Assembly: GCA_964468785.1 (NCBI GenBank)
Contig: CAYXWK010000011.1
Location: forward strand, 1-8,881
Reading direction: 5' to 3'
Length of the DNA stretch: 8,881 bases
Origin: Candidatus Woesearchaeota archaeon
Lineage (GTDB): Archaea; Nanobdellota; Nanobdellia; Pacearchaeales; GW2011-AR1
The notes under the pieces are model-generated. The model did not search any database, was not told the DNA's origin, and saw nothing but the letters and a program-made list of their open reading frames with translations. Of this stretch, positions 1-8,881 are shown piece by piece. The translations under genes were made by a program, and so were the position numbers. The first letter of the stretch is position 1, and each line of letters begins with the position of its first letter.

Positions 1-1
1 C

Positions 2-79
2 GAGGGTTCTGAAGAATGTTTCAGCCAGTATGAATTTGCGAGAATAGGTTTCGAACTAAATGAACCGGGTAGATGTTAG
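2..79 (+). pseudogene. 3' end of a reading frame entering from the window edge (EGSEECFSQYEFARIGFELNEPGRC*), stopped by TAG 77-79. Same frame as 119..1258 and probably the same ancestral gene.
   Basis: Hand translation of frame 2. The peptide aligns without gaps to residues 329-348 of the 5568..7781 product (CLEPFSRLEFGLRTNEPSQC-R-IS vs CFSQYEFARIGFELNEPGRC-*-IS), and the alignment continues across the stop. Confidence 0.5.
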
Positions 80-118
80 ATATCAGCAATTCCACCTACT
101 CTAAACAGCTTTGACGCG

Positions 119-1258
119 ATGACGAGAATAGGTTCTTTCGGAAAAAATCAGACGATAGTTTTCAGAGGAATTAATCTGCCGGACTTAGGATATGAAGGTC
201 AGCTTTCTCAGGAAATTGAAAATGATGTAACTTTGTACGTTGTTTGTGAAGATTATCACGAAAGAAGAAATGAGCTGAGTCCGTTCAAAATTAATCTTTG
301 TGTTACTCCGAGGGACTTTCAGCCGGTCGTTTTGAATAATCTTGGAAGGCAGACTATTCCTCTTGCTTTTGATGCGACAAGTTATGATTTGAGTTTTGAG
401 ATAAATGAAGCTGCGGAGTGTAGATGGGATACGAGAAGTAATCTGAGGTTTAGCGAAATGCCTGCGCAGAATAGTTGTAATGCTGTTCAGATTTCTGGAG
501 GATATAGTTGTAATTTCGGGAGTATTCCTATAAGCGTTCCGACGACAAAATTGTGCGTGAAGTGTCTTGACCATCCTGAGTGGAAAGGAACTAGCAGAGA
601 GGGAGAGAGAAATGAAAATCAGCAATGTGCGAGTTTTGAGATTGTAAAAAGTCCGAGCGCGTTGAGTGCGGAGATAGTTAATCCGGTAAACGGATTTTTG
701 AAGAAAATCGGTGCGGGAATAACTAGTATTGAAGTTTTCGTCAGAACGAACGGGGGCGCGAATTCCGGAAACGCAGATTGTTTCATAAATATAGATGGTA
801 CGGGAGAGCAGCCGTTTAAACAAACAGGTGGAAAAGAACACAAGATGACATTTAATCAGCTGACTGCGGGAGAACACGAGATGAAAATAGTTTGTAGAGA
901 TGGAGTTAATCCACGAGTGACTCTTAACTCAAAGTTCACAATTGAAACAGAAAACACGATTCCGAAAGTTAGTAGAATTTTTTCGAGCGACGGCAAACTT
1001 ATTATTGTTACGGATGAACCAGCAGAATGTGCTTATACCTTTGACAAAGTTGAAGGAAGAAACTCTGCTTGTAACTTCAAAGTAGAAGAGGCATCGAGTT
1101 TAAGCGGAGTATATTTGATGGGAATTGTTTTGGGGAGCGAAGGATTGCGACACGAAACTCAAATTCAACACGGACAAATCTATTATATGAAATGCAAAGA
1201 CATTTATGGAAACGAAGATTCAGGATGTGGAATTATAGCTTCTCCAGGAACATACTAA
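119..1258 (+). CDS. Cysteine-containing Ig-like-repeat surface protein, C-terminal portion. Collinear paralog of the C-terminal half of 5568..7781. As called it has no signal peptide of its own.
   Basis: 379-aa ORF ending in TAA. Recurrent motif [TI][ND]E[PA]xxC[RA][WY] (INEAAECRWD, TDEPAECAYT) is paired with Y/I-x-x-C-x-D strands (LYVVCEDY, MKIVCRDG, YYMKCKDIYGN), in the same order as in 5568..7781. The antisense ORFs here are low complexity. Confidence 0.75.
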   Translation: MTRIGSFGKNQTIVFRGINLPDLGYEGQLSQEIENDVTLYVVCEDYHERRNELSPFKINLCVTPRDFQPVVLNNLGRQTIPLAFDATSYDLSFEINEAAECRWDTRSNLRFSEMPAQNSCNAVQISGGYSCNFGSIPISVPTTKLCVKCLDHPEWKGTSREGERNENQQCASFEIVKSPSALSAEIVNPVNGFLKKIGAGITSIEVFVRTNGGANSGNADCFINIDGTGEQPFKQTGGKEHKMTFNQLTAGEHEMKIVCRDGVNPRVTLNSKFTIETENTIPKVSRIFSSDGKLIIVTDEPAECAYTFDKVEGRNSACNFKVEEASSLSGVYLMGIVLGSEGLRHETQIQHGQIYYMKCKDIYGNEDSGCGIIASPGTY

Positions 1259-1278
1259 ACTTTATAGTGGTAGCAAAA

Positions 1279-1286
1279 TTTAAATA
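1279..1286 (+). promoter_or_regulatory. TATA-like box (TTTAAATA) preceded by TAGCAAAA, about 25 nt upstream of ATG 1308
   Basis: The spacing fits an archaeal TATA-to-TSS distance with transcription starting at or near the ATG (leaderless). The TAGCAAAA prefix is shared with the promoter at 3017. Confidence 0.45.
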
Positions 1287-1307
1287 TCTTGAAAATATCG
1301 GAATTTT

Positions 1308-2006
1308 ATGCTTGAAGGAATAAGAAAATATGTTGCGACTGGACTGGTTGGTTCAGCTTTAGCTTTAAACACGGGATGTTTAGATGTTGCGATGTTTGCA
1401 TTCGGACAGATTGCAGCTCATGAAAGAAGTAAAAGAGAAAGAGAGGTAGTGGAAAGAGAAAATGAAAGAACGAGGAGGGAACTTCAGGAGCTTAGAAATG
1501 AGATTAGAAGGTTAGGAGGTTCTTCGCCGACACACGAGAATAAATACGAACCTCAACGAACAATTCCTATTGAAAACTCGCTACAAGTCAGCACGCGCAG
1601 ATTTAGAGGCTCGGCGACTAATGAAAATCCTGCTTGGGAGAGAAAACCTCACTCAGAATTAACTTTTTTCTGTTCATCTGGTAAAGAATGGAATGACTTA
1701 AATCGGAATGGAATAATGGAAAAAGGAGAGATAGTATCTGCTGAGAGGTTTAGATATGGACAAACAGCCTGGTTTCATGCGGCTCAATTAAATTCAGGAG
1801 ATGTTGAAATTAGATTACATAGAATTTATTTTGAAGGAAACAATTCTATGAGGGAAAATGTTTACAACCACAGAGAATCTGTAAAAGAAAGAGGAAATTT
1901 CAGTCATGCCGTAAACCTGAAAGGGTTTAAACATGGAATGTACGAGGCAATATTGACTAATAACGGTGAAGGTTCCGTAAAAACTGAGTTTAAAATAAGT
2001 CAATAA
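1308..2006 (+). CDS. Membrane-anchored or lipoprotein-like protein with a charged coiled-coil stalk and a C-terminal globular domain; function unknown
   Basis: 232-aa ORF. The N-terminal hydrophobic segment YVATGLVGSALALNTGC has a lipobox-like xTGC. It is followed by ERSKREREVVERENERTRRELQELRNEIRRL (heptad-like, highly charged) and then a ~150-aa mixed domain. Confidence 0.8.
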   Translation: MLEGIRKYVATGLVGSALALNTGCLDVAMFAFGQIAAHERSKREREVVERENERTRRELQELRNEIRRLGGSSPTHENKYEPQRTIPIENSLQVSTRRFRGSATNENPAWERKPHSELTFFCSSGKEWNDLNRNGIMEKGEIVSAERFRYGQTAWFHAAQLNSGDVEIRLHRIYFEGNNSMRENVYNHRESVKERGNFSHAVNLKGFKHGMYEAILTNNGEGSVKTEFKISQ

Positions 2007-2016
2007 TCGGGAAAAG

Positions 2017-2024
2017 AATATAAA
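2017..2024 (+). promoter_or_regulatory. TATA-like box (AATATAAA) preceded by GGGAAAAG, 22-25 nt upstream of ATG 2043/2046
   Basis: The position and A-rich upstream flank match the other putative promoters in the window. Confidence 0.4.
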
Positions 2025-2042
2025 CTGTGAAAAATTTATTGG

Positions 2043-2820
2043 ATGATGAAAAAAGAGAGATATCTTCTTTTACTTCTTGGCGTTGCGCTTTTTGTCGGTG
2101 CTTCTGGATATGAGATTTTATTTTCGGACGATGTTTTTTTTTAGCACGACTTCTGGAGGAGGAGATGAATGTGAAGATGAGCGCGAAATAGAGGTTTGTT
2201 TTGATTCATGCTTTTTAGATACCTATGCCAGATGCGTCCAATCTATTTCATGCGATGTTCCGCTAAAAGATGGAAAGATTTTATGTGAGAATGTGCCTGA
2301 ATGCGATTGTGACAGTGTTGAACAATGTGAAGAAAATAAAGGGGTTTGTTTGAACGATCTAACACGACGATATGGAGGATGTAGCGAGAAAGAAATACGA
2401 GAAAAAATAGATGCGGAATTGAATGGGTGTACTTACGGTCATGGATTAGCAGGAATTGTTGACAGAATTGAACAATGTGTGGCTGGATTGTTCACAGAAT
2501 ATGGTGTAACAGATCCAACAGGAAAGGACAGAAAACGTATGGATAAGTTGGTTGAGGGTATGATAAAGAAGTGTGAAGAAGACAAGAAAAAATGTGAAAA
2601 AGAAGAAGAAACCTGTAAAAATAATGTCGCAGATTGCAATAGCGCTTTGGAAGAATATGGTGGGCTTGAAAAATGCGTCACAGATTTTCAGAATTGCGTA
2701 AATCCTGAACGTGAAAGAGAGATATGTGAGGCCAAGGTTAAGATTGAATGTTATGATGAAGCTTGGGAAACTTGTCTTCGAGATTGTGTGGAGATGATCC
2801 TTAATTGCCCTGCCAGATAA
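2043..2820 (+). CDS. Secreted acidic 24-cysteine protein, frameshifted. The signal-peptide leader (2043..2144, frame 0, ends at TAG) and the Cys-rich body (frame +1, to TAA 2818-2820) are joined at a T9 tract.
   Basis: Frame 0 gives MMKKERYLLLLLGVALFVGASGYEILFSDDVFF*, a canonical n/h/c signal peptide. The body (STTSGGGDECEDEREIEVCFDSC...) is open in frame +1 from 2077, but its in-frame starts (TTG 2077, ATG 2110, ATG 2131) give no signal peptide. Removing one T from the T9 run fuses the two frames exactly. Confidence 0.7.
2134..2142 (+). repeat. T9 homopolymer at the signal-peptide/body junction of the 2043..2820 gene
   Basis: Counted directly: g-ttttttttt-ag. The 0-frame reads GTT TTT TTT TAG. 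Confidence 0.95.
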
Positions 2821-3016
2821 ATCTCTTAATAATTGTGAAAAATTTAATCACTTTTACTTCGCTGTAAAAATATAAGAGTGAATAATTTTATTTAACTTGA
2901 AACATAGGTTGATGATTTTTATCTTCAGTAATAGCAGTCTGTTCCGCATTTCCAAGATAATTTGTTTTGATGAATTAATTTATACAAAAAATTAACATCC
3001 TCAATTAGCAAAACAA

Positions 3017-3023
3017 TTATAAA
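3017..3023 (+). promoter_or_regulatory. TATA box (TTATAAA) preceded by TAGCAAAACA, about 25 nt upstream of ATG 3045; promoter of the three-gene operon
   Basis: It lies at the 3' end of the longest non-coding gap in the window (2821-3035/3044). The spacing predicts a leaderless transcript starting at about ATG 3045. Confidence 0.5.
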
Positions 3024-3044
3024 GAAATTTTTACTTTGACATTG

Positions 3045-3812
3045 ATGGAAAAAAGAGGGCAGGTTGCGATTTTTGTAATTATCGCGATAGTGATTGTTGT
3101 CGCAGGAATTCTTGTTTATATGTTTTTACCACAGGCAAGAAACCTCATTTCGGGAGAGGTTACACCAACGGAATTTATTCAAAGATGCGTCGAGGATGAG
3201 GTTCAGAGAGGAGTTGAAATTCTTTCAAAACAGGGAGGATATCTTGAACCTGAAGGATATATTATGTATCAAGATAATAAAGTAAAGTATCTCTGCTATA
3301 CTGCGCAATACTATTTGCCGTGCAAAGTTCAGCAACCTTTAATAAAAAGACATTTTGAAAGAGAACTTGAGGGAATGATTGCTGCAAAAACTGCGGAATG
3401 TCTTTCCGAAATGAAAAGAAATTATGAAAGCAGAGGATTTGAAGTTGATGGCGGAGACGAAAGCAGTGTCGGAGTAGATATAATTCCCGGAGTGATGAAT
3501 ATTTTAGTCAGTGCGCCTATGACAATTTCACGCGGAGGTGACGTTCAAAGATTCAATAGTTTCAATGTAAATTACCCGAGCAGACTTTATGAAATACTTG
3601 CGATATCACACAGCATAATAGATTTTGAAGCCACTCTTGGAGATACTTCGACAGATTTATATTACGCATATTACCCTAACTTAGTAATTTACAAAAATAA
3701 ACTTGGAGATGGAACTACGATTTACAAAGTTAGAGATGTTACGACGAGGGAAGAATTTAATTTTGCGTCGAGAAGTTTGGCGTGGCCAGGAGGTTTGGGA
3801 TTAAATGGATAA
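3045..3812 (+). CDS. Pilin-like protein: a class III (prepilin/archaellin-type) signal peptide plus a ~225-aa globular domain
   Basis: From ATG 3045 the N-terminus is MEKRG|QVAIFVIIAIVIVVAGILVYMF: a short basic n-region, a K/R-G|Q cleavage motif and a ~22-aa hydrophobic helix. The ORF-track start (TTG 3036) would lie upstream of the predicted TSS. The stop overlaps the next gene by 8 nt. Confidence 0.85.
   Translation: MEKRGQVAIFVIIAIVIVVAGILVYMFLPQARNLISGEVTPTEFIQRCVEDEVQRGVEILSKQGGYLEPEGYIMYQDNKVKYLCYTAQYYLPCKVQQPLIKRHFERELEGMIAAKTAECLSEMKRNYESRGFEVDGGDESSVGVDIIPGVMNILVSAPMTISRGGDVQRFNSFNVNYPSRLYEILAISHSIIDFEATLGDTSTDLYYAYYPNLVIYKNKLGDGTTIYKVRDVTTREEFNFASRSLAWPGGLGLNG
3789..3794 (+). promoter_or_regulatory. 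Shine-Dalgarno-like GGAGGT 10 nt upstream of ATG 3805
   Basis: A perfect core SD inside the 3' end of the preceding gene. This is typical of internal genes in archaeal operons whose first gene is leaderless. Confidence 0.5.
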
Positions 3813-5565
3813 GAGATTTGCACTCTTTGTTATTTTAGGAGTTATAATTTTTTCTTCAATTGTTGTAAGAATGAGTGCGCAGGAAAACGAGATAGTTGGA
3901 ACTAATCAGGCGACAGTTTGTTGTGAAACAACTCGTTCCGGACTTACTTGCCAGGATGTTTTGGCTGAACATTGTGCCCCAGATAGCAGACAACCTCCGA
4001 CTGCTTGTGAATCAACTTCTTTCTGTCAAACTGGATGGTGTTATGATTCCAAAGAGGGATATTGCTTAGATAATACTCCTCAATTTACTTGCAACAAAGA
4101 AGGAGGAACTTGGAGTCTTGAAGAACCTGCTGTTTGTGGTCTTGGGTGTTGCGTTCTTGATGACCAGGCCGCATTTGTTACGCAGGTAAATTGTAAGAGA
4201 CTTTCAGGATTTGCGGGAATTGAAGCGAATTGGAATCCTACAATAACTAATGCTCCTCAATGTGTTCTAACCGCCGGAAACAAAGAAAAGGGGGCATGCG
4301 TTTATTGGGACAAATTTGAGAGAGGATGTAAATTTACGACTAGGGAAAACTGCGTGGAAGGATTTGTTTATGGAACTACTACGAGCGAGGCAACTCAAAG
4401 TGCAAACGCACAACTTGCAACACAACTAACGCCCGCACCTCAACCAACTATCGGACAGAATAGTTCTAACGGGAGTAGCGTTACCGGCTCGGCAATTCTT
4501 GCAAGTGTAAGTGCGCAGGAAAATACTAATTTTTCAAACTACGGAATAATTGATTTTCACCCAGGAAAACTTTGTTCTGCCGAAGAACTTGGAACCATTT
4601 GCTCTCCGACGGAAAACACGGTCTGTATGCCTGGAAAAGAAGAGGTTTATTTTGTTGACACTTGTGGAAATCCTGCAAATATATATGACGCGTCTAAAAT
4701 AAGGGATAAAAATTATTGGAACGAAATAGTTGAGAAAGCGAATTCGTGCGGGTTTGGTGGTTCGAATGAAGATAGTAAGACTTGTGGGAATTGTAATTAT
4801 TTGCTTGGAAGCTTTTGCAGAAGTGCTGACAAAAATAACCCTACTTATGGAGACAATATTTGTCAAAGTCTGAATTGTGTTGACGGAAATGGGCAGAAAA
4901 AAATTCACGGAGAGAGTTGGTGCATTTACGATGGTGGAACTACTGGTGCGCCGGGAAGCAGAGCATACAGACAGCTTTGTAATAATGGAGAAATAATTGT
5001 TGAACCGTGTGCGGACTTTAGGCAGGAAGAGTGTATTGAAAGCAGTGCAACGGGATTTTCACAGGCGGCGTGCAGAGTAAACAGGTGGCAGGATTGCACT
5101 GCACAAACAGAACAATTTCAGTGTGAAAACGGAGATGTGCGTGACTGCAAGTGGATGCCAGGATTTGAATATGTTTTGTTCGGAAGTGTTTTGAACGGAA
5201 CAACTATTGACGCAAATTCTCTTGGTGCAATTGCGCAGGGATTGAAAGAGATAGGCGGATTGAAGAATGTTCCTGAAGGTTCGTGTGTTCCGAAAACTCC
5301 TCCTGGACTGAACAGAGCGACTGATGAAGCGCCAGCTATTTGTGCGCAGGCGAATGCAGTTTGTCCGGTGAAATATGAAAAGAGTTTGTTGAGTGGAGAG
5401 TGGGAATGTGTCGAGCATTGCGATTGTCTTCCTGGCGGAGCTTTGGAAAAGGCAAGAGTTGAATTATGCATGTCGATTGGTGACTGCGGACCGAAAGTAA
5501 ACTATGTCGGAGTTGCCGGAAGCGGACCGGGTTACAGCGTCGATGAGCGGAAGCTGGATAGCTGA
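3805..5565 (+). CDS. Secreted two-module protein with about 43 cysteines in 586 aa; function unknown
   Basis: N-terminal Sec-type signal MDKRFALFVILGVIIFSSIVVRMSA|QEN. Module 1 (aa ~30-189) has 17 Cys. A T/S/Q/A/P-rich linker spans aa ~190-240. Module 2 (aa ~241-586) has about 26 Cys. ATG overlaps the upstream stop (ATGGATAA), and TGA lies 2 nt before the next ATG. Confidence 0.9.
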   Translation: MDKRFALFVILGVIIFSSIVVRMSAQENEIVGTNQATVCCETTRSGLTCQDVLAEHCAPDSRQPPTACESTSFCQTGWCYDSKEGYCLDNTPQFTCNKEGGTWSLEEPAVCGLGCCVLDDQAAFVTQVNCKRLSGFAGIEANWNPTITNAPQCVLTAGNKEKGACVYWDKFERGCKFTTRENCVEGFVYGTTTSEATQSANAQLATQLTPAPQPTIGQNSSNGSSVTGSAILASVSAQENTNFSNYGIIDFHPGKLCSAEELGTICSPTENTVCMPGKEEVYFVDTCGNPANIYDASKIRDKNYWNEIVEKANSCGFGGSNEDSKTCGNCNYLLGSFCRSADKNNPTYGDNICQSLNCVDGNGQKKIHGESWCIYDGGTTGAPGSRAYRQLCNNGEIIVEPCADFRQEECIESSATGFSQAACRVNRWQDCTAQTEQFQCENGDVRDCKWMPGFEYVLFGSVLNGTTIDANSLGAIAQGLKEIGGLKNVPEGSCVPKTPPGLNRATDEAPAICAQANAVCPVKYEKSLLSGEWECVEHCDCLPGGALEKARVELCMSIGDCGPKVNYVGVAGSGPGYSVDERKLDS

Positions 5566-5567
5566 AT

Positions 5568-7781
5568 ATGATTAAGAAATTTATTGGTGCAGGAGAAATT
5601 TTTTTATTAGTTAGTTTGAGCTTTGCGATTTCGTTTATGATGAGTGAGAATTTTGTTAGTGGGCAGATTGGTATCCTTGATACTATTAATCCGGCTATTC
5701 CTACTCTTCCGAGTTTTAGTCCTTCAAGCATCCCTACGCCTTCTACATTTACTGGTGGTGGAGCTGGCGCAGATTTTGTAGGGCCTCCATCAAGTTTAGC
5801 AAACCCGGAGGTGCTGTTACCCGATCCTAGCCTGCCTAATAGTGGTCTTGGCGTTGGAGAGATTGCTCCAAAAGTTACAGAAACGCAATCATTTCTTACT
5901 GGAAGTGGACCGGGAACGATAAGCGGACTTTTCAAAGGACAATTTTTCGGAGTAGGGCCTGAACTTGGTGGAACTGCTTTTGGAGGAGCCGTTAGTTCTT
6001 TGGCATCTGGACTTGTTTGGGGAGCGATTGTTTACGGAGGTTTGCGCCTTGTTGGAGGGCTGTTTGGATTGAGCGATAGCCAGTCACAAGCGTTAGCTTT
6101 CGCGGGCGGAGCGGGAACTTTTGTCGGAACGACTCTTTATTTTATAGGTCAGAATTTTGGAACTACTGCTTTTTTGACTACCGGAACTGCTGCGTTTATG
6201 TGGGGATTGGGAATTGGTGTTGCAATATTTTTGGCAACTTACAAGAAAGAAAAATCTGAAGTTGTCCAATTTATTTGTGAGCCGTGGCAGCCACCGATAG
6301 GTGGAAGAGATTGCGAGAAATGTAACGAAGACCCTCTGATTCCGTGTTCTGAATACAGATGTACGAGTTTAGGACAGGCGTGTGAAATTAAAAACAAGGG
6401 AACCGAAAACGAAGTGTGTGTCTGGGCGCATCCGGGAGATGTTGATGCTCCGAGAATCACTCCGTGGAACGAAGCACTAAAACCGAGTGAACTAATATAT
6501 ACTCCAGAAGGAAATGGTTATAAAATAACACTGCCCGGCGCGCCTGGTGGTTGTCTTGAACCTTTCTCGCGACTCGAATTTGGATTAAGAACTAATGAGC
6601 CATCGCAATGTAGAATTTCTCTTGACCCAAACGCTACTTTTAACGGGGCGGGAACTTATTTGTTTGGAGGTTCAACTCTTTTTGCGAACGAACATGCGCA
6701 AAGAAACTTTAGAATTCCTAATCCATTTGTACCTGAAGAGGACGGAGATGCTCCGACCATACATAACAACGGATTATTTACTCTTTATGTCAGATGTGCG
6801 GACGCTAACGGGAACGGGATGGATGGCGCGCCTACGCCTTTCAGGTTCTGTGTGCAGCCCGGACCAGATACGAGGGAGCCCGTAATTGAAGGTTTTAATA
6901 TACGGGATGGGAGTGCCGTGAGATATGAAGTTGATTTCGTTCCAATTGAAGTATATACTAACGAGCCGGCTACATGCAGATGGAGCAAGAGCGATAAATC
7001 ATATTCTGATATGGAAAATAGCATGAGATGCGCGACAAGTTCGAGAGACATCGGACCTAACTCTCAATTCACCTGTTCGGGAGAGTTGAGCGGGGTTCAG
7101 GACAGGCAAAACAATACTTTCTACTTTAGATGCTCTGACCAGCCACTTGCTACAATTGGAAGAAACACTATGCAATATAGCGTGCCGTTAACATTGAGAG
7201 GAACACAACCACTGACTATACAAAATACTGCGCCGAGTGGAGAGATAAGAGGAGCAACTTCTTTTGTGAATGTCAATCTTAGCGTTACTACAGCTCACGG
7301 TGCAGATGAAGGAAAGGCGACGTGTTATTATGAATTGAGTGAGAATGGTCCATTTAACATAGCAATGAACGGAGCTGGAACATTTTCCCATTTCCAACCG
7401 CTCCCACGTGAAGCAGGAAATCATAATGTTTACTTTAGGTGTATTGACTCTGGTGGAAATGTCGCGTCCTCGATGACTTCTTTTAATGTATTTGTTGACA
7501 CTCAAGAGCCTATGATAACGAGAATATTCAGAGATGGACAAAGCATAAAGATTATAACTAATGAGGACGCAAGATGTGTTTACTCTCTGAACAGCTGTAA
7601 CTATGAGTTTGAGAGCGGAATACCTTTGACATATGAAACTGTTGGTGGAGATATTGCGCGTGAAAGACATCTTTTGGAATGGAATAAAGAAGTAACATAC
7701 CATATAAAGTGTGAAGATTATCAGGGAAAGAGAGTCGCGCCGAATGAATGTAGTGCAGTAATTCAAGGTGCAGAGTTTTAA
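5568..7781 (+). CDS. Large membrane protein: N-terminal anchor, Pro/Ser-rich linker, glycine-rich polytopic membrane module, Cys-knot region and four Ig-like repeats
   Basis: 737-aa ORF. Hydrophobic aa 8-27; P/S/G-rich aa 40-135; Gly-rich hydrophobic aa ~136-225 (nt ~5973-6242); then YKKEK. Repeats are at nt ~6453-6860, 6876-7202, 7206-7496 and 7503-7778. Their motifs are TNEPSQCRIS...LYVRCADANGN, TNEPATCRWS...FYFRCSD, KATCYYE...VYFRCIDSGGN and TNEDARCVYS...YHIKCEDYQG. Confidence 0.9.
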   Translation: MIKKFIGAGEIFLLVSLSFAISFMMSENFVSGQIGILDTINPAIPTLPSFSPSSIPTPSTFTGGGAGADFVGPPSSLANPEVLLPDPSLPNSGLGVGEIAPKVTETQSFLTGSGPGTISGLFKGQFFGVGPELGGTAFGGAVSSLASGLVWGAIVYGGLRLVGGLFGLSDSQSQALAFAGGAGTFVGTTLYFIGQNFGTTAFLTTGTAAFMWGLGIGVAIFLATYKKEKSEVVQFICEPWQPPIGGRDCEKCNEDPLIPCSEYRCTSLGQACEIKNKGTENEVCVWAHPGDVDAPRITPWNEALKPSELIYTPEGNGYKITLPGAPGGCLEPFSRLEFGLRTNEPSQCRISLDPNATFNGAGTYLFGGSTLFANEHAQRNFRIPNPFVPEEDGDAPTIHNNGLFTLYVRCADANGNGMDGAPTPFRFCVQPGPDTREPVIEGFNIRDGSAVRYEVDFVPIEVYTNEPATCRWSKSDKSYSDMENSMRCATSSRDIGPNSQFTCSGELSGVQDRQNNTFYFRCSDQPLATIGRNTMQYSVPLTLRGTQPLTIQNTAPSGEIRGATSFVNVNLSVTTAHGADEGKATCYYELSENGPFNIAMNGAGTFSHFQPLPREAGNHNVYFRCIDSGGNVASSMTSFNVFVDTQEPMITRIFRDGQSIKIITNEDARCVYSLNSCNYEFESGIPLTYETVGGDIARERHLLEWNKEVTYHIKCEDYQGKRVAPNECSAVIQGAEF

Positions 7782-7804
7782 TCAACAAAATTGTTGCGAG
7801 CAGA

Positions 7805-7810
7805 TTTTTT
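7805..7810 (+). terminator. T6 run 24 nt after the stop of 5568..7781; possible archaeal oligo-T terminator
   Basis: Lies in the 70-nt convergent gap between 7781 and 7852. An A5 run at 7823-7827 would give the equivalent T5 for the minus-strand hjc. Confidence 0.3.
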
Positions 7811-7851
7811 AGGAGTTTGGGGAAAAATGTAAAGCTCGTCTTGGCTGGTGA

Positions 7852-8247
7852 CTAATTTTCAAAAAACTGACTGAATTTTTTTCCGTTTTCTTTTGCGTCT
7901 TTGAGAGAGATTGCCCAATATTTTCCTGTGTCTTTTAGCTGTTCCGGTATGATGAATATAAATCCTTCGCGATTGAATCTGACTGCAATTACCGGAGTTA
8001 AACCGAGAATGTGGGAGAAAGTTATGAAATCATCTATTTGCTTTTTTGTTATGTATATTGTTGATTTTTTTGAGGACTTGCATTCTATAGTGTATCCTTT
8101 TTTTCCAGATTTTGCGGCTATTAAATCGCAAGGAGAATCATCTCCTACACCGGAGCCAGCGACACGAACTGCGCGCCAGGTTTGTTCTGTGAACAATTGA
8201 ATCAACTCTCTTTCAATTTTAGAACCTTTTGCTTTATTGTTAGGCAT
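7852..8247 (-). CDS. hjc: Archaeal Holliday junction resolvase Hjc
   Basis: 131 aa. KGSKIERELIQLF...AVRVAGSG...CDLIA...YTIECKSSKK..IYITKKQIDDFITFS...G.TPVIAVRF matches the Hjc pattern as I remember it: G-x-x-x-ERE, SGS, the catalytic D in DhIA, and E-x-K followed by IY..K.Q. Ends with TAG. Confidence 0.93.
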   Translation of the reverse strand: MPNNKAKGSKIERELIQLFTEQTWRAVRVAGSGVGDDSPCDLIAAKSGKKGYTIECKSSKKSTIYITKKQIDDFITFSHILGLTPVIAVRFNREGFIFIIPEQLKDTGKYWAISLKDAKENGKKFSQFFEN

Positions 8248-8270
8248 TTCTTAAATTAGAGAAGAAGGTT

Positions 8271-8280
8271 TTTATATTTT
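8271..8280 (-). promoter_or_regulatory. TATA-like box (AAAATATAAA on the minus strand) about 28 nt upstream of the hjc ATG (8247)
   Basis: Same spacing logic as the + strand promoters. Abuts the stop codon (8280-8282) of the upstream mini-gene. Confidence 0.4.
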
Positions 8281-8441
8281 CAGTTAGAGAATCGATTGAA
8301 AATCCAGCCGATTGAAATTATAATCAGGATTAACGGAATCCACGGAATATTTATTCTCCAGTAACCAATTTCTGAGAAAAGCCAGACGAGAGCGACTATG
8401 AGAACAATTACTGCGAATGTTGGGAATTTTGTTTTTGCCAT
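8280..8441 (-). CDS. Small (53 aa) two-TM membrane protein; not in the ORF track
   Basis: Hand translation of the minus strand gives MAKTKFPTFAVIVLIVALVWLFSEIGYWRINIPWIPLILIIISIGWIFNRFSN*: two clean hydrophobic helices with basic ends. It has its own TATA-like box about 25 nt upstream and fits the compact same-strand gene spacing. Confidence 0.5.
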   Translation of the reverse strand: MAKTKFPTFAVIVLIVALVWLFSEIGYWRINIPWIPLILIIISIGWIFNRFSN

Positions 8442-8460
8442 ATTTTATTTGAGTTTTTGT

Positions 8461-8472
8461 AATTTATAATTT
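8461..8472 (-). promoter_or_regulatory. TATA-like box (AAATTATAAATT on the minus strand) about 25 nt upstream of ATG 8441
   Basis: Position relative to the mini-gene start. Its upstream end (8472) overlaps the first base of the stop codon (8472-8474) of the preceding gene. Confidence 0.35.
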
Positions 8473-8639
8473 TATAGGTCGCGCGCTTGTAGGGTTCTTC
8501 TGCCGTTTGCTTTTGCACGCTCCGATGCTTCGCCTATGAGTTTTAGAACTTTCTTATTTAGGGCTTCCTCAAATTCCGATGCTACGCTCATACCATCTGC
8601 AACTTCACGAATTTTTGATTTAACAATTATTCCAGTCAT
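8472..8639 (-). CDS. Small (55 aa) histone-fold-like protein; not in the ORF track
   Basis: Hand translation gives MTGIIVKSKIREVADGMSVASEFEEALNKKVLKLIGEASERAKANGRRTLQARDL*. The pattern is helix, loop, long helix, ending ...A.ANGR+T+.A.D+, like the C-terminal part of archaeal histone-fold proteins. From memory it resembles the DUF1931-type mini-proteins; this is unverified. Confidence 0.6.
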   Translation of the reverse strand: MTGIIVKSKIREVADGMSVASEFEEALNKKVLKLIGEASERAKANGRRTLQARDL

Positions 8640-8660
8640 TTTATTTTTTAGAGGCAGGAT

Positions 8661-8670
8661 TATTTAAATT
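8661..8670 (-). promoter_or_regulatory. TATA-like box (ATTTAAATAA on the minus strand, preceded by TTGAAAAA) about 26 nt upstream of ATG 8639
   Basis: Spacing and A-rich BRE-like flank match the other five candidates. Confidence 0.4.
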
Positions 8671-8686
8671 TTTTCAAGAAGGAATC

Positions 8687-8881
8687 CTATAATTTTGCAT
8701 CATTACCTAACATTTCAATAAAGGCATTAATTTTTGCAGGCGTGCCTTCGGCACGAACGACGACCACCCTGCCATTGCCGTTAGACCTGCCCAAGCCCCC
8801 GACGTCGGAGTACCAGTAAGAACCGAGCCGACCCGCACAAGCGAGCCCTTTTTTTCTTGTCCAATCCCATTTGAAATCTTC
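8687..8881 (-). CDS. Possible 3' end of a CDS running off the window (…EDFKWDWTRKKGLACAGRLGSYWYSDVGGLGRSNGNGRVVVVRAEGTPAKINAFIEMLGNDAKL*); product unknown. The alternative is a structured RNA within 8737-8848.
   Basis: The minus-strand frame is open from the window edge to TAG at 8687-8689, 17 nt before the next promoter, which fits the compact layout. Against coding: codon usage in the GC-rich part (GGC x5, CGG, CGT, CTC) is atypical for the window. There is only a faint resemblance to acylphosphatase-like beta-alpha-beta patterns (A.RLG..W...D....GRV.V.AEG....I..FIE.L), and the C-terminal strands are missing. Confidence 0.35.
   Translation of the reverse strand, partial: EDFKWDWTRKKGLACAGRLGSYWYSDVGGLGRSNGNGRVVVVRAEGTPAKINAFIEMLGNDAKL

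Follow-up and report, generated by a model that had tools for sequence, protein, structure and literature searches.

Homopolymer tracts at the 5' ends of genes are frequent frameshift sites. In inlA of Listeria monocytogenes, for example, a homopolymer lies in the first codons of a gene for a secreted or surface protein, and with one extra base there only a short peptide is made. This 5' poly(A) tract is hypermutable, and reversion is frequent (PMC2831843).

Runs of this kind may also be misread during transcription. RNA polymerase slippage on runs of nine A or T yields heterogeneous mRNAs and the partial rescue of indels, and bacterial RNA polymerases slip efficiently at runs of T9 length (PMC1088944, PMC5009743). 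The sense strand of mxiE in Shigella flexneri and of dnaX in Thermus thermophilus has a run of some nine T or A, and some of the mxiE transcripts join a short upstream ORF to a longer one downstream. Both systems are conserved and have been shown experimentally (PMC1088944, PMC5009743).

The ribosome offers a third route. In prfB, the gene for RF2, the codon in the P site re-pairs in the +1 frame beside a 0-frame stop that is followed by C. In prfB, a Shine-Dalgarno (SD) stimulator lies 3 nt upstream, the arrangement is conserved in bacteria, and the system is autoregulatory, as the gene's own product reads the stop. More generally, stops that follow slippery codons favour low-level +1 shifts and have been called "shifty stops" (PMC5009743). 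In cellular archaea, there is one proven programmed frameshift, the -1 site of fucA1 in Saccharolobus solfataricus, where a slippery site that contains a homopolymer divides the gene into an N-terminal ORF, which is short, and a long C-terminal one. The full-length orthologues of fucA1 differ by one base in the run (PMC8211752). Archaeal RNA polymerases, in addition, can end transcription where they meet T5 or a longer run (PMC2253867).

The gene described here resembles each of these systems in part. It lies in the window, by which we mean the whole stretch of DNA that was analysed (8,881 nucleotides of contig CAYXWK010000011.1, assembly GCA_964468785.1, from a Candidatus Woesearchaeota archaeon). 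Like inlA, it carries a homopolymer in the first codons of what appears to be a gene for a secreted protein, and one base too many leaves a short peptide. In inlA, however, strains with either tract length are known and the rate of reversion was determined, whereas here T9 alone is seen, in an uncultured archaeon and in a gene whose protein has no assigned function. Like mxiE and dnaX, it has nine T in the sense strand, and, like mxiE, a short ORF followed by a longer one. But mxiE needs an inserted base, while this site needs one base deleted or two inserted, and with an archaeal polymerase the run may terminate transcription instead. With fucA1 it shares the split of an archaeal gene at a homopolymer. 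The fucA1 shift, however, is -1 on A-AAA-AAT, with flanking rare codons, a putative stem-loop and full-length orthologues; our site would need +1 and has neither such flanking elements nor any orthologues. With prfB it shares the re-pairing codon, the adjacent stop and the C that follows, but it has no SD element and no orthologues.

Anatomy of the split gene

The split is a real feature of this sequence. Its parts are as follows.

2009..2024, + strand: BRE/TATA-like promoter 16-mer, GGGAAAAGAATATAAA; a second copy stands before the first gene of the cluster
2043..2144, + strand: leader ORF of 33 codons plus TAG, with a predicted Sec-type signal peptide; translation from ATG 2043, MMKKERYLLLLLGVALFVGASGYEILFSDDVFF
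2131..2133, + strand: ATG in the body frame, directly 5' of the T run; the start used by gene callers (229 aa, MFFFSTTSGGG...)
2134-2142, + strand: T9 homopolymer at the frame break, flanked gatg-T9-agc (2130-2145)
2142..2144, + strand: TAG stop of the leader frame, made of the ninth T and the AG of the Ser codon AGC
2143..2820, + strand: body ORF of 225 codons plus TAA (2818-2820), in the +1 frame; 24 Cys, acidic, Lys-rich, of no known family

Most of this anatomy had been described in a first-pass annotation of the DNA. Translation confirmed the T9 run, the ORF that opens at ATG 2043 and ends with the TAG, and the body in the +1 frame. In-silico edits of the run bore out the further claim that T8 or T11 would give one continuous ORF, of 258 and 259 aa respectively, and the count of 24 Cys holds for the 258-aa fused protein. 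What the first-pass annotation omitted was ATG 2131, a possible independent start in the body frame. All other edits give short products: 48-49 aa with T7 or T10, and 34 aa with T12, against the 33 aa of T9 itself.

The tract covers codons 31-33 of the 258-codon gene and lies in its 5' eighth. The fused, exported product would be expected to carry across it the junction peptide ...DDVFFSTTSGGGDECEDER / DDVFFSTTSGGG / SGYEILFSDDVFFSTTSGGGDECEDER. A product begun at ATG 2131, where the start context in the body frame is gATGTTTTTTTTTAGC, would be expected to have the N-terminus (M)FFFSTTSGGGDECEDER.

T9 is longer than any other homopolymer in the window, none of which exceeds 7. A run of nine T is nevertheless unremarkable by itself: dinucleotide-preserving shuffles average 1.78 matches, and 148 of 200 shuffles contain at least one. 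The non-random feature is the position of T9, exactly at the frame junction, and not the presence of the run.

For annotation, this calls for a correction. The deposited 229-aa protein (MFFFS...; database protein P0001) is the gene call from ATG 2131, and we take it to be a truncated call that lacks the signal peptide. The gene product is better read as a secreted protein of 258 aa whose signal peptide lies in another frame. If T9 is merely a frameshift allele, the matter is mainly one of annotation. If the tract varies or is recoded, this would be a rare instance of an episymbiotic DPANN archaeon in which a surface protein is controlled stochastically or by recoding.

Across the collections searched, the Cys-rich protein is a strict ORFan. 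A word-indexed search with the fused protein over 5.8 billion clusters found only the gene itself. Exhaustive phmmer against 1.84 billion representatives returned the protein itself and one spurious EK-rich match (P0002), a compositional artefact. No match was obtained by tblastn of the fused protein against 11 loci that include the closest relatives, and no orthologue by scanning GTDB genomes and JGI metagenomes with back-translated patterns. The body has no match in Pfam, NCBIfam, PHROGs or PDB sequences, nor is it paralogous to its Cys-rich neighbours. A single-sequence AF2 model of the body, with a pLDDT of 48.5, was unusable.

Coding frame, signal peptide and promoter

The first-pass annotation treated leader and Cys-rich body as one secreted protein. 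Four independent lines, namely codon usage, signal-peptide features, the placement of the promoter and the nature of the neighbours, all support the view that these are two halves of one secreted-protein gene, with a +1 break at T9.

Consider first the coding frame. For codon log-odds, the nine other genes of the contig served as the training set. In the part upstream of the tract, the score is +13.5 bits for the leader frame, -18.2 for the body frame and -8.2 for the third frame. Downstream, it is +63.5 for the body frame, with -103 and -180 in the other frames. This swap means that the coding frame switches at the tract. As a control, the same test was applied to 131 windows of equal size (29 codons), and in 130 of them it picked the true frame.

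Other ways of placing the start or passing the stop were considered. TTG 2077 and ATG 2110 were rejected as starts of the body, since the body frame scores as non-coding upstream of the tract. TAG as a sense codon was rejected because TAG ends the CobA-like and Hjc genes in the contig. Read-through of the TAG would meet TGA at 2166-2168 after 7 more codons.

A cleavable Sec-type signal peptide begins with an n-region of positive charge, continues with 10-15 hydrophobic, uncharged residues as its h-region, and has a c-region in which positions -3 and -1 are small residues. By a simple rule built on these features, the leader has all three: an n-region MMKKER, an h-region YLLLLLGVALFVGA, and a c-region with a possible cleavage site between VGA and SG. 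Among 263 short ATG-ORFs in six frames of 86 kb, only 3 others pass along with the leader. The rule also accepts the true N-termini of neighbouring surface proteins.

The promoter-like 16-mer lies upstream of the leader. Its second copy was found in L001, a 13.5-kb Logan contig (SRR31189355) that covers almost all of the window, at 628-643, before the first cluster gene; the two are alike in 15 of 16 bases. The 13.5-kb contig contains no further copies, and the chance expectation is 0.03, an optimistic statistic, since the pattern used, GGGAAAAGAATA[A/T]AAA, was drawn from the same two sites. From the end of the 16-mer to the start codon, the distance is exactly 21 nt at both sites (GTG 665 in L001; ATG 2046 in the window), and in all first genes of the locus the TATA-like box ends 17-21 nt before the start codon.

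Judged by this spacing, mRNAs in the locus are probably leaderless, and the true start of the leader is probably ATG 2046. The 16-mer is probably a BRE/TATA promoter shared by the two genes, which suggests co-regulation together with leaderless transcripts. It stands 21 nt before ATG 2046, the distance also seen at the first cluster gene, and this argues that the leader is the true 5' end of the gene.

Among the neighbours on the + strand, six of six begin with an N-terminal signal or TM segment, and several are Cys-rich. An exported protein with 24 Cys fits this context.

The body shows none of the decay expected of a pseudogene: it keeps 225 open codons and coding-like codon usage, and has no second lesion. 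This, in turn, means that the lesion is recent or that the body is still under selection. An intact body fits a very recent mutation, and it fits equally well selection on a protein that is still expressed, whether through recoding, through reversion or from ATG 2131.

Readings of the T9 junction

Any account of the junction must, of course, begin with the sequence that preceded it. Counted over 65 kb from this and related loci, T8 occurs seven times and T9 once, at the tract studied. Two of the T8 runs lie in frame in intact pilin-like genes, paralogous and orthologous to one another (L001 734-741; L003 4560-4567), where they encode Phe-Phe-Leu in an N-terminal hydrophobic or TM segment. Phe is encoded by TTT 148 times, against 53 for TTC. 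Because T8 is common in the lineage and TTT is preferred, a T8 ancestor is natural. The ancestral gene would have read ...GAT GTT TTT TTT AGC... (Asp-Val-Phe-Phe-Ser), with T8 already present. The two in-frame T8 runs stand at the same place in the gene in two genomes, and long oligo-T is thus tolerated inside genes.

We hold with moderate confidence that the tract is a genuine and recent T8-to-T9 allele, made by strand slippage, and that the gene is now mostly OFF, with at most an adventitious leak. The direction of the change, the OFF state and the leak are each something that we infer. Under this hypothesis, the gene would be lineage-specific, would encode a secreted protein of ~258 aa rich in disulfides, and would lie between two modules of a conserved surface-protein cluster. 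Strand slippage during replication would have added one T, to give T9 as the majority allele in the sequenced population. A leaderless mRNA would begin at about ATG 2046. The ribosome would make the signal peptide and ~10 further residues and then halt at UAG 2142-2144, releasing a 33-aa leader peptide. The Cys-rich body, being in the +1 frame, would not be made by standard decoding, and the gene would be essentially OFF.

Two routes might let a little product through. RNA polymerase may slip on the U9/A9 hybrid, to give U8 or U11 transcripts, or the tRNA-Phe in the P site may slip +1 on UUU_UAG. We regard a leak by either route as a side effect of the tract rather than as something designed. 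Expression through the T8/T9 tract is itself uncertain, given that oligo-T can terminate transcription; the T8 runs in intact genes imply, conversely, that read-through of oligo-T must occur here. As the tract would be hypermutable, reversion to T8 would be expected at an elevated frequency.

A hypermutable tract in the 5' coding region of a gene with a signal peptide is also what would be expected of a reversible contingency locus. Here, T8 would be the ON state and T9 or T10 the OFF state of a variable surface protein, and the sampled populations would be OFF. This is the phase-variation switch that the first-pass annotation had raised. The slot that the gene occupies in the surface-protein cluster is a variable one, no part of the body ORF is broken, and 5' homopolymer tracts have been described as general switches, with 18 archaeal genomes included (PMC2831843). 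A switch should, however, be seen in more than one position. T9 is the length in the window and in L001, and by inference in a second Logan contig, all of them consensus sequences, in which minority alleles are invisible. A DNA pattern that allowed 6-14 bases between the exact flanks found 0 tract-length variants, whether T8, T10 or T11, in the JGI metagenome, GTDB genome and IMG/VR collections, and the fused protein was never called in the protein collections searched. Further, in an AT-rich genome the Phe and Leu codons give rise to long T runs passively, and 86 kb of related loci contain no second candidate tract. We consider the switch unlikely.

Alternatively, the real genome might have T8 and an intact 258-aa gene, with T9 an artefact of sequencing or of consensus building. 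The first-pass annotation had named such a miscount as the dull alternative, and some facts speak for it: T9 exceeds every other homopolymer in the window, changing one base is enough to yield a perfect gene, and the assemblies may come from the same or sibling libraries. L001, however, an independent assembly, spans window positions 1-8771 with 4 substitutions and 0 gaps, and it too has T9. The same tract was therefore delivered by two assemblers, in consensus sequences that differ at 4 SNPs. Exact-protein look-ups found two Logan contigs with the identical 229-aa call and identical neighbours; the second of these presumably stems from another run, and presumably carries T9 as well, since the 229-aa call requires T9 or T9+3n.

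The rest of the 13.5 kb also argues against a miscount. It contains no other frameshift: the other long ORFs are unbroken, including those of 1520, 737 and 586 aa with their T7 and A7 runs, and so is the ORF with the in-frame T8. A k-mer-based Logan contig of 13.5 kb implies, moreover, that the reads were accurate. With T9 in both the window and L001, and with the other ORFs and T8 intact, a systematic homopolymer miscount is unlikely, the evidence being that of consensus assemblies that perhaps all come from one library or chemistry. The miscount has thus lost ground since the first-pass annotation, and as an explanation of the junction we find it quite unlikely.

The junction might also be no lesion at all. 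Two cistrons would then overlap, the first for a leaderless, hydrophobic micro-protein of 33 aa, and the second for a cytoplasmic protein of 229 aa that starts at ATG 2131 by termination-reinitiation. Gene callers use that ATG, which is in frame. The stop at 2142-2144 follows 11 nt after it, and the overlap, ATGTTTTTTTTTAG, is compatible with translational coupling. Against this, ATG 2131 has no SD-like motif, TATA box or other promoter upstream, and it arises incidentally from the Asp-Val codons GAT GTT. The c-region and linker of the leader are typical of a cleavable signal peptide and not of a stand-alone TM peptide. A protein with 24 Cys that lacks the CxxC spacing of metal sites, and that stands beside secreted Cys-rich neighbours, is much better explained as exported. 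We therefore judge a pair of cistrons very unlikely.

This leaves recoding, which the first-pass annotation had likened to the +1 sites of prfB and antizyme. Part of the likeness stands. At 2139-2145 the sequence is UUU UAG C, so that UUU is available again one base downstream while a 0-frame stop occupies the A site, as at P-site slippage sites of the prfB/antizyme type. The tract also has the form of a transcriptional-slippage site like those of mxiE, dnaX and IS elements, being a T9 (at least nine A or T) at the junction of overlapping ORFs that an indel fuses. The stimulators are another matter. Neither GGAGG nor GGTG occurs within 15 nt upstream of the site, and folding 2100-2260 gives z +1.34, with 187 of 200 shuffles folding at least as well. 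The region also has no Rfam family, tRNA or hairpin terminator. The likeness itself, moreover, need not have been selected, since adding one T to GTT TTT TTT AGC produces the prfB-like "U UUU UUU UAG C" automatically.

Programmed recoding, by which a +1 frameshift at U UUU UUU UAG C or transcriptional slippage would set a low and possibly regulated level of product, is accordingly the least probable of these explanations and highly unlikely, for although the site is formally competent, T9 reaches the length for efficient slippage by bacterial polymerases (PMC1088944, PMC5009743) and the body is intact, every feature of the site follows from one extra T in T8 plus AGC, neither structure nor SD-like element betrays design, the gene is an ORFan, fucA1 with its -1 shift is the one proven programmed frameshift in cellular archaea (PMC8211752), and oligo-T runs are archaeal terminators (PMC2253867).

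That the T9/UAG junction acts as a functional expression gate in a DPANN archaeon, by whatever means, is in our estimate improbable. If true, it would be the first documented homopolymer switch of an archaeal surface protein, or the first cellular archaeal gene to depend on +1 or transcriptional slippage. The gate would tune the amount of a disulfide-rich secreted protein that is specific to this lineage and that may serve in contact with the host cell.

The surrounding surface-protein cluster

The gene sits in a cluster that is conserved in Pacearchaeota-like relatives and that matches no known family. The adjacent pilin-like protein has 312 homologues, whose source names are those of Pacearchaeota and Nanoarchaeota MAGs. 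In the relatives, the cluster takes the form of a pilin-like protein of ~256 aa, a Cys-rich protein of ~1500 aa, a second pilin-like protein of ~255-270 aa, and proteins of ~600 aa and ~740-870 aa, with Hjc resolvase further along; Hjc is encoded in the window as well. The resolvase and the source names of the pilin-like homologues assign the window to a DPANN archaeon of Pacearchaeota-like type.

The surface-protein module is duplicated (window 1-1258 and 3045-7781; L001 665-12517), and a pilin-like "M.KRGQ.." protein precedes each module. In the 1520-aa protein, residues 143-762 align with the 586-aa protein and residues 914-1507 with the 737-aa protein. The 1520-aa protein thus equals the two downstream genes in fused form.

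The only differences between L001 and the window are at positions 70 and 78 and in a TA/AT dinucleotide swap at window 7948-7949. The swap changes residue 100 of Hjc, which is Ile in the window and Asn in L001.

The slot between the two modules varies in content, and L003, L011 and L012 have nothing in it. In the window it holds a 232-aa lipobox-like ORFan and the Cys-rich gene studied here. The former, at window 1308-2006, has a lipobox-like signal (..ALALNTGC..), and forms a singleton cluster. By BLAST it resembles neither of the 232-aa proteins that L007 and L003 have at this position.

The slot of L007 (GCA_053535195.1, JAIYJR010000079.1; a Pacearchaeota-like MAG) contains a different gene set, in which a bona fide, full-length Lgt (prolipoprotein diacylglyceryl transferase) is encoded at 6751-7536 (PF01790, E 4.8e-62). 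It adjoins a lipobox-like protein of 232 aa (..LLASVGC..). A bacterial-type Lgt is unusual in an archaeon.

A further insertion distinguishes some of the relatives. The window has no NTP_transf_2 insert at 5565/5568, between its ~600-aa and ~800-aa surface genes, where such a gene has been inserted in L003 (12607-13241), L007 (12910-13251) and L012 (12792-13699). The NTP_transf_2 gene of L003 is paired with a HepT-like gene, in the manner of an MNT/HepT toxin-antitoxin.
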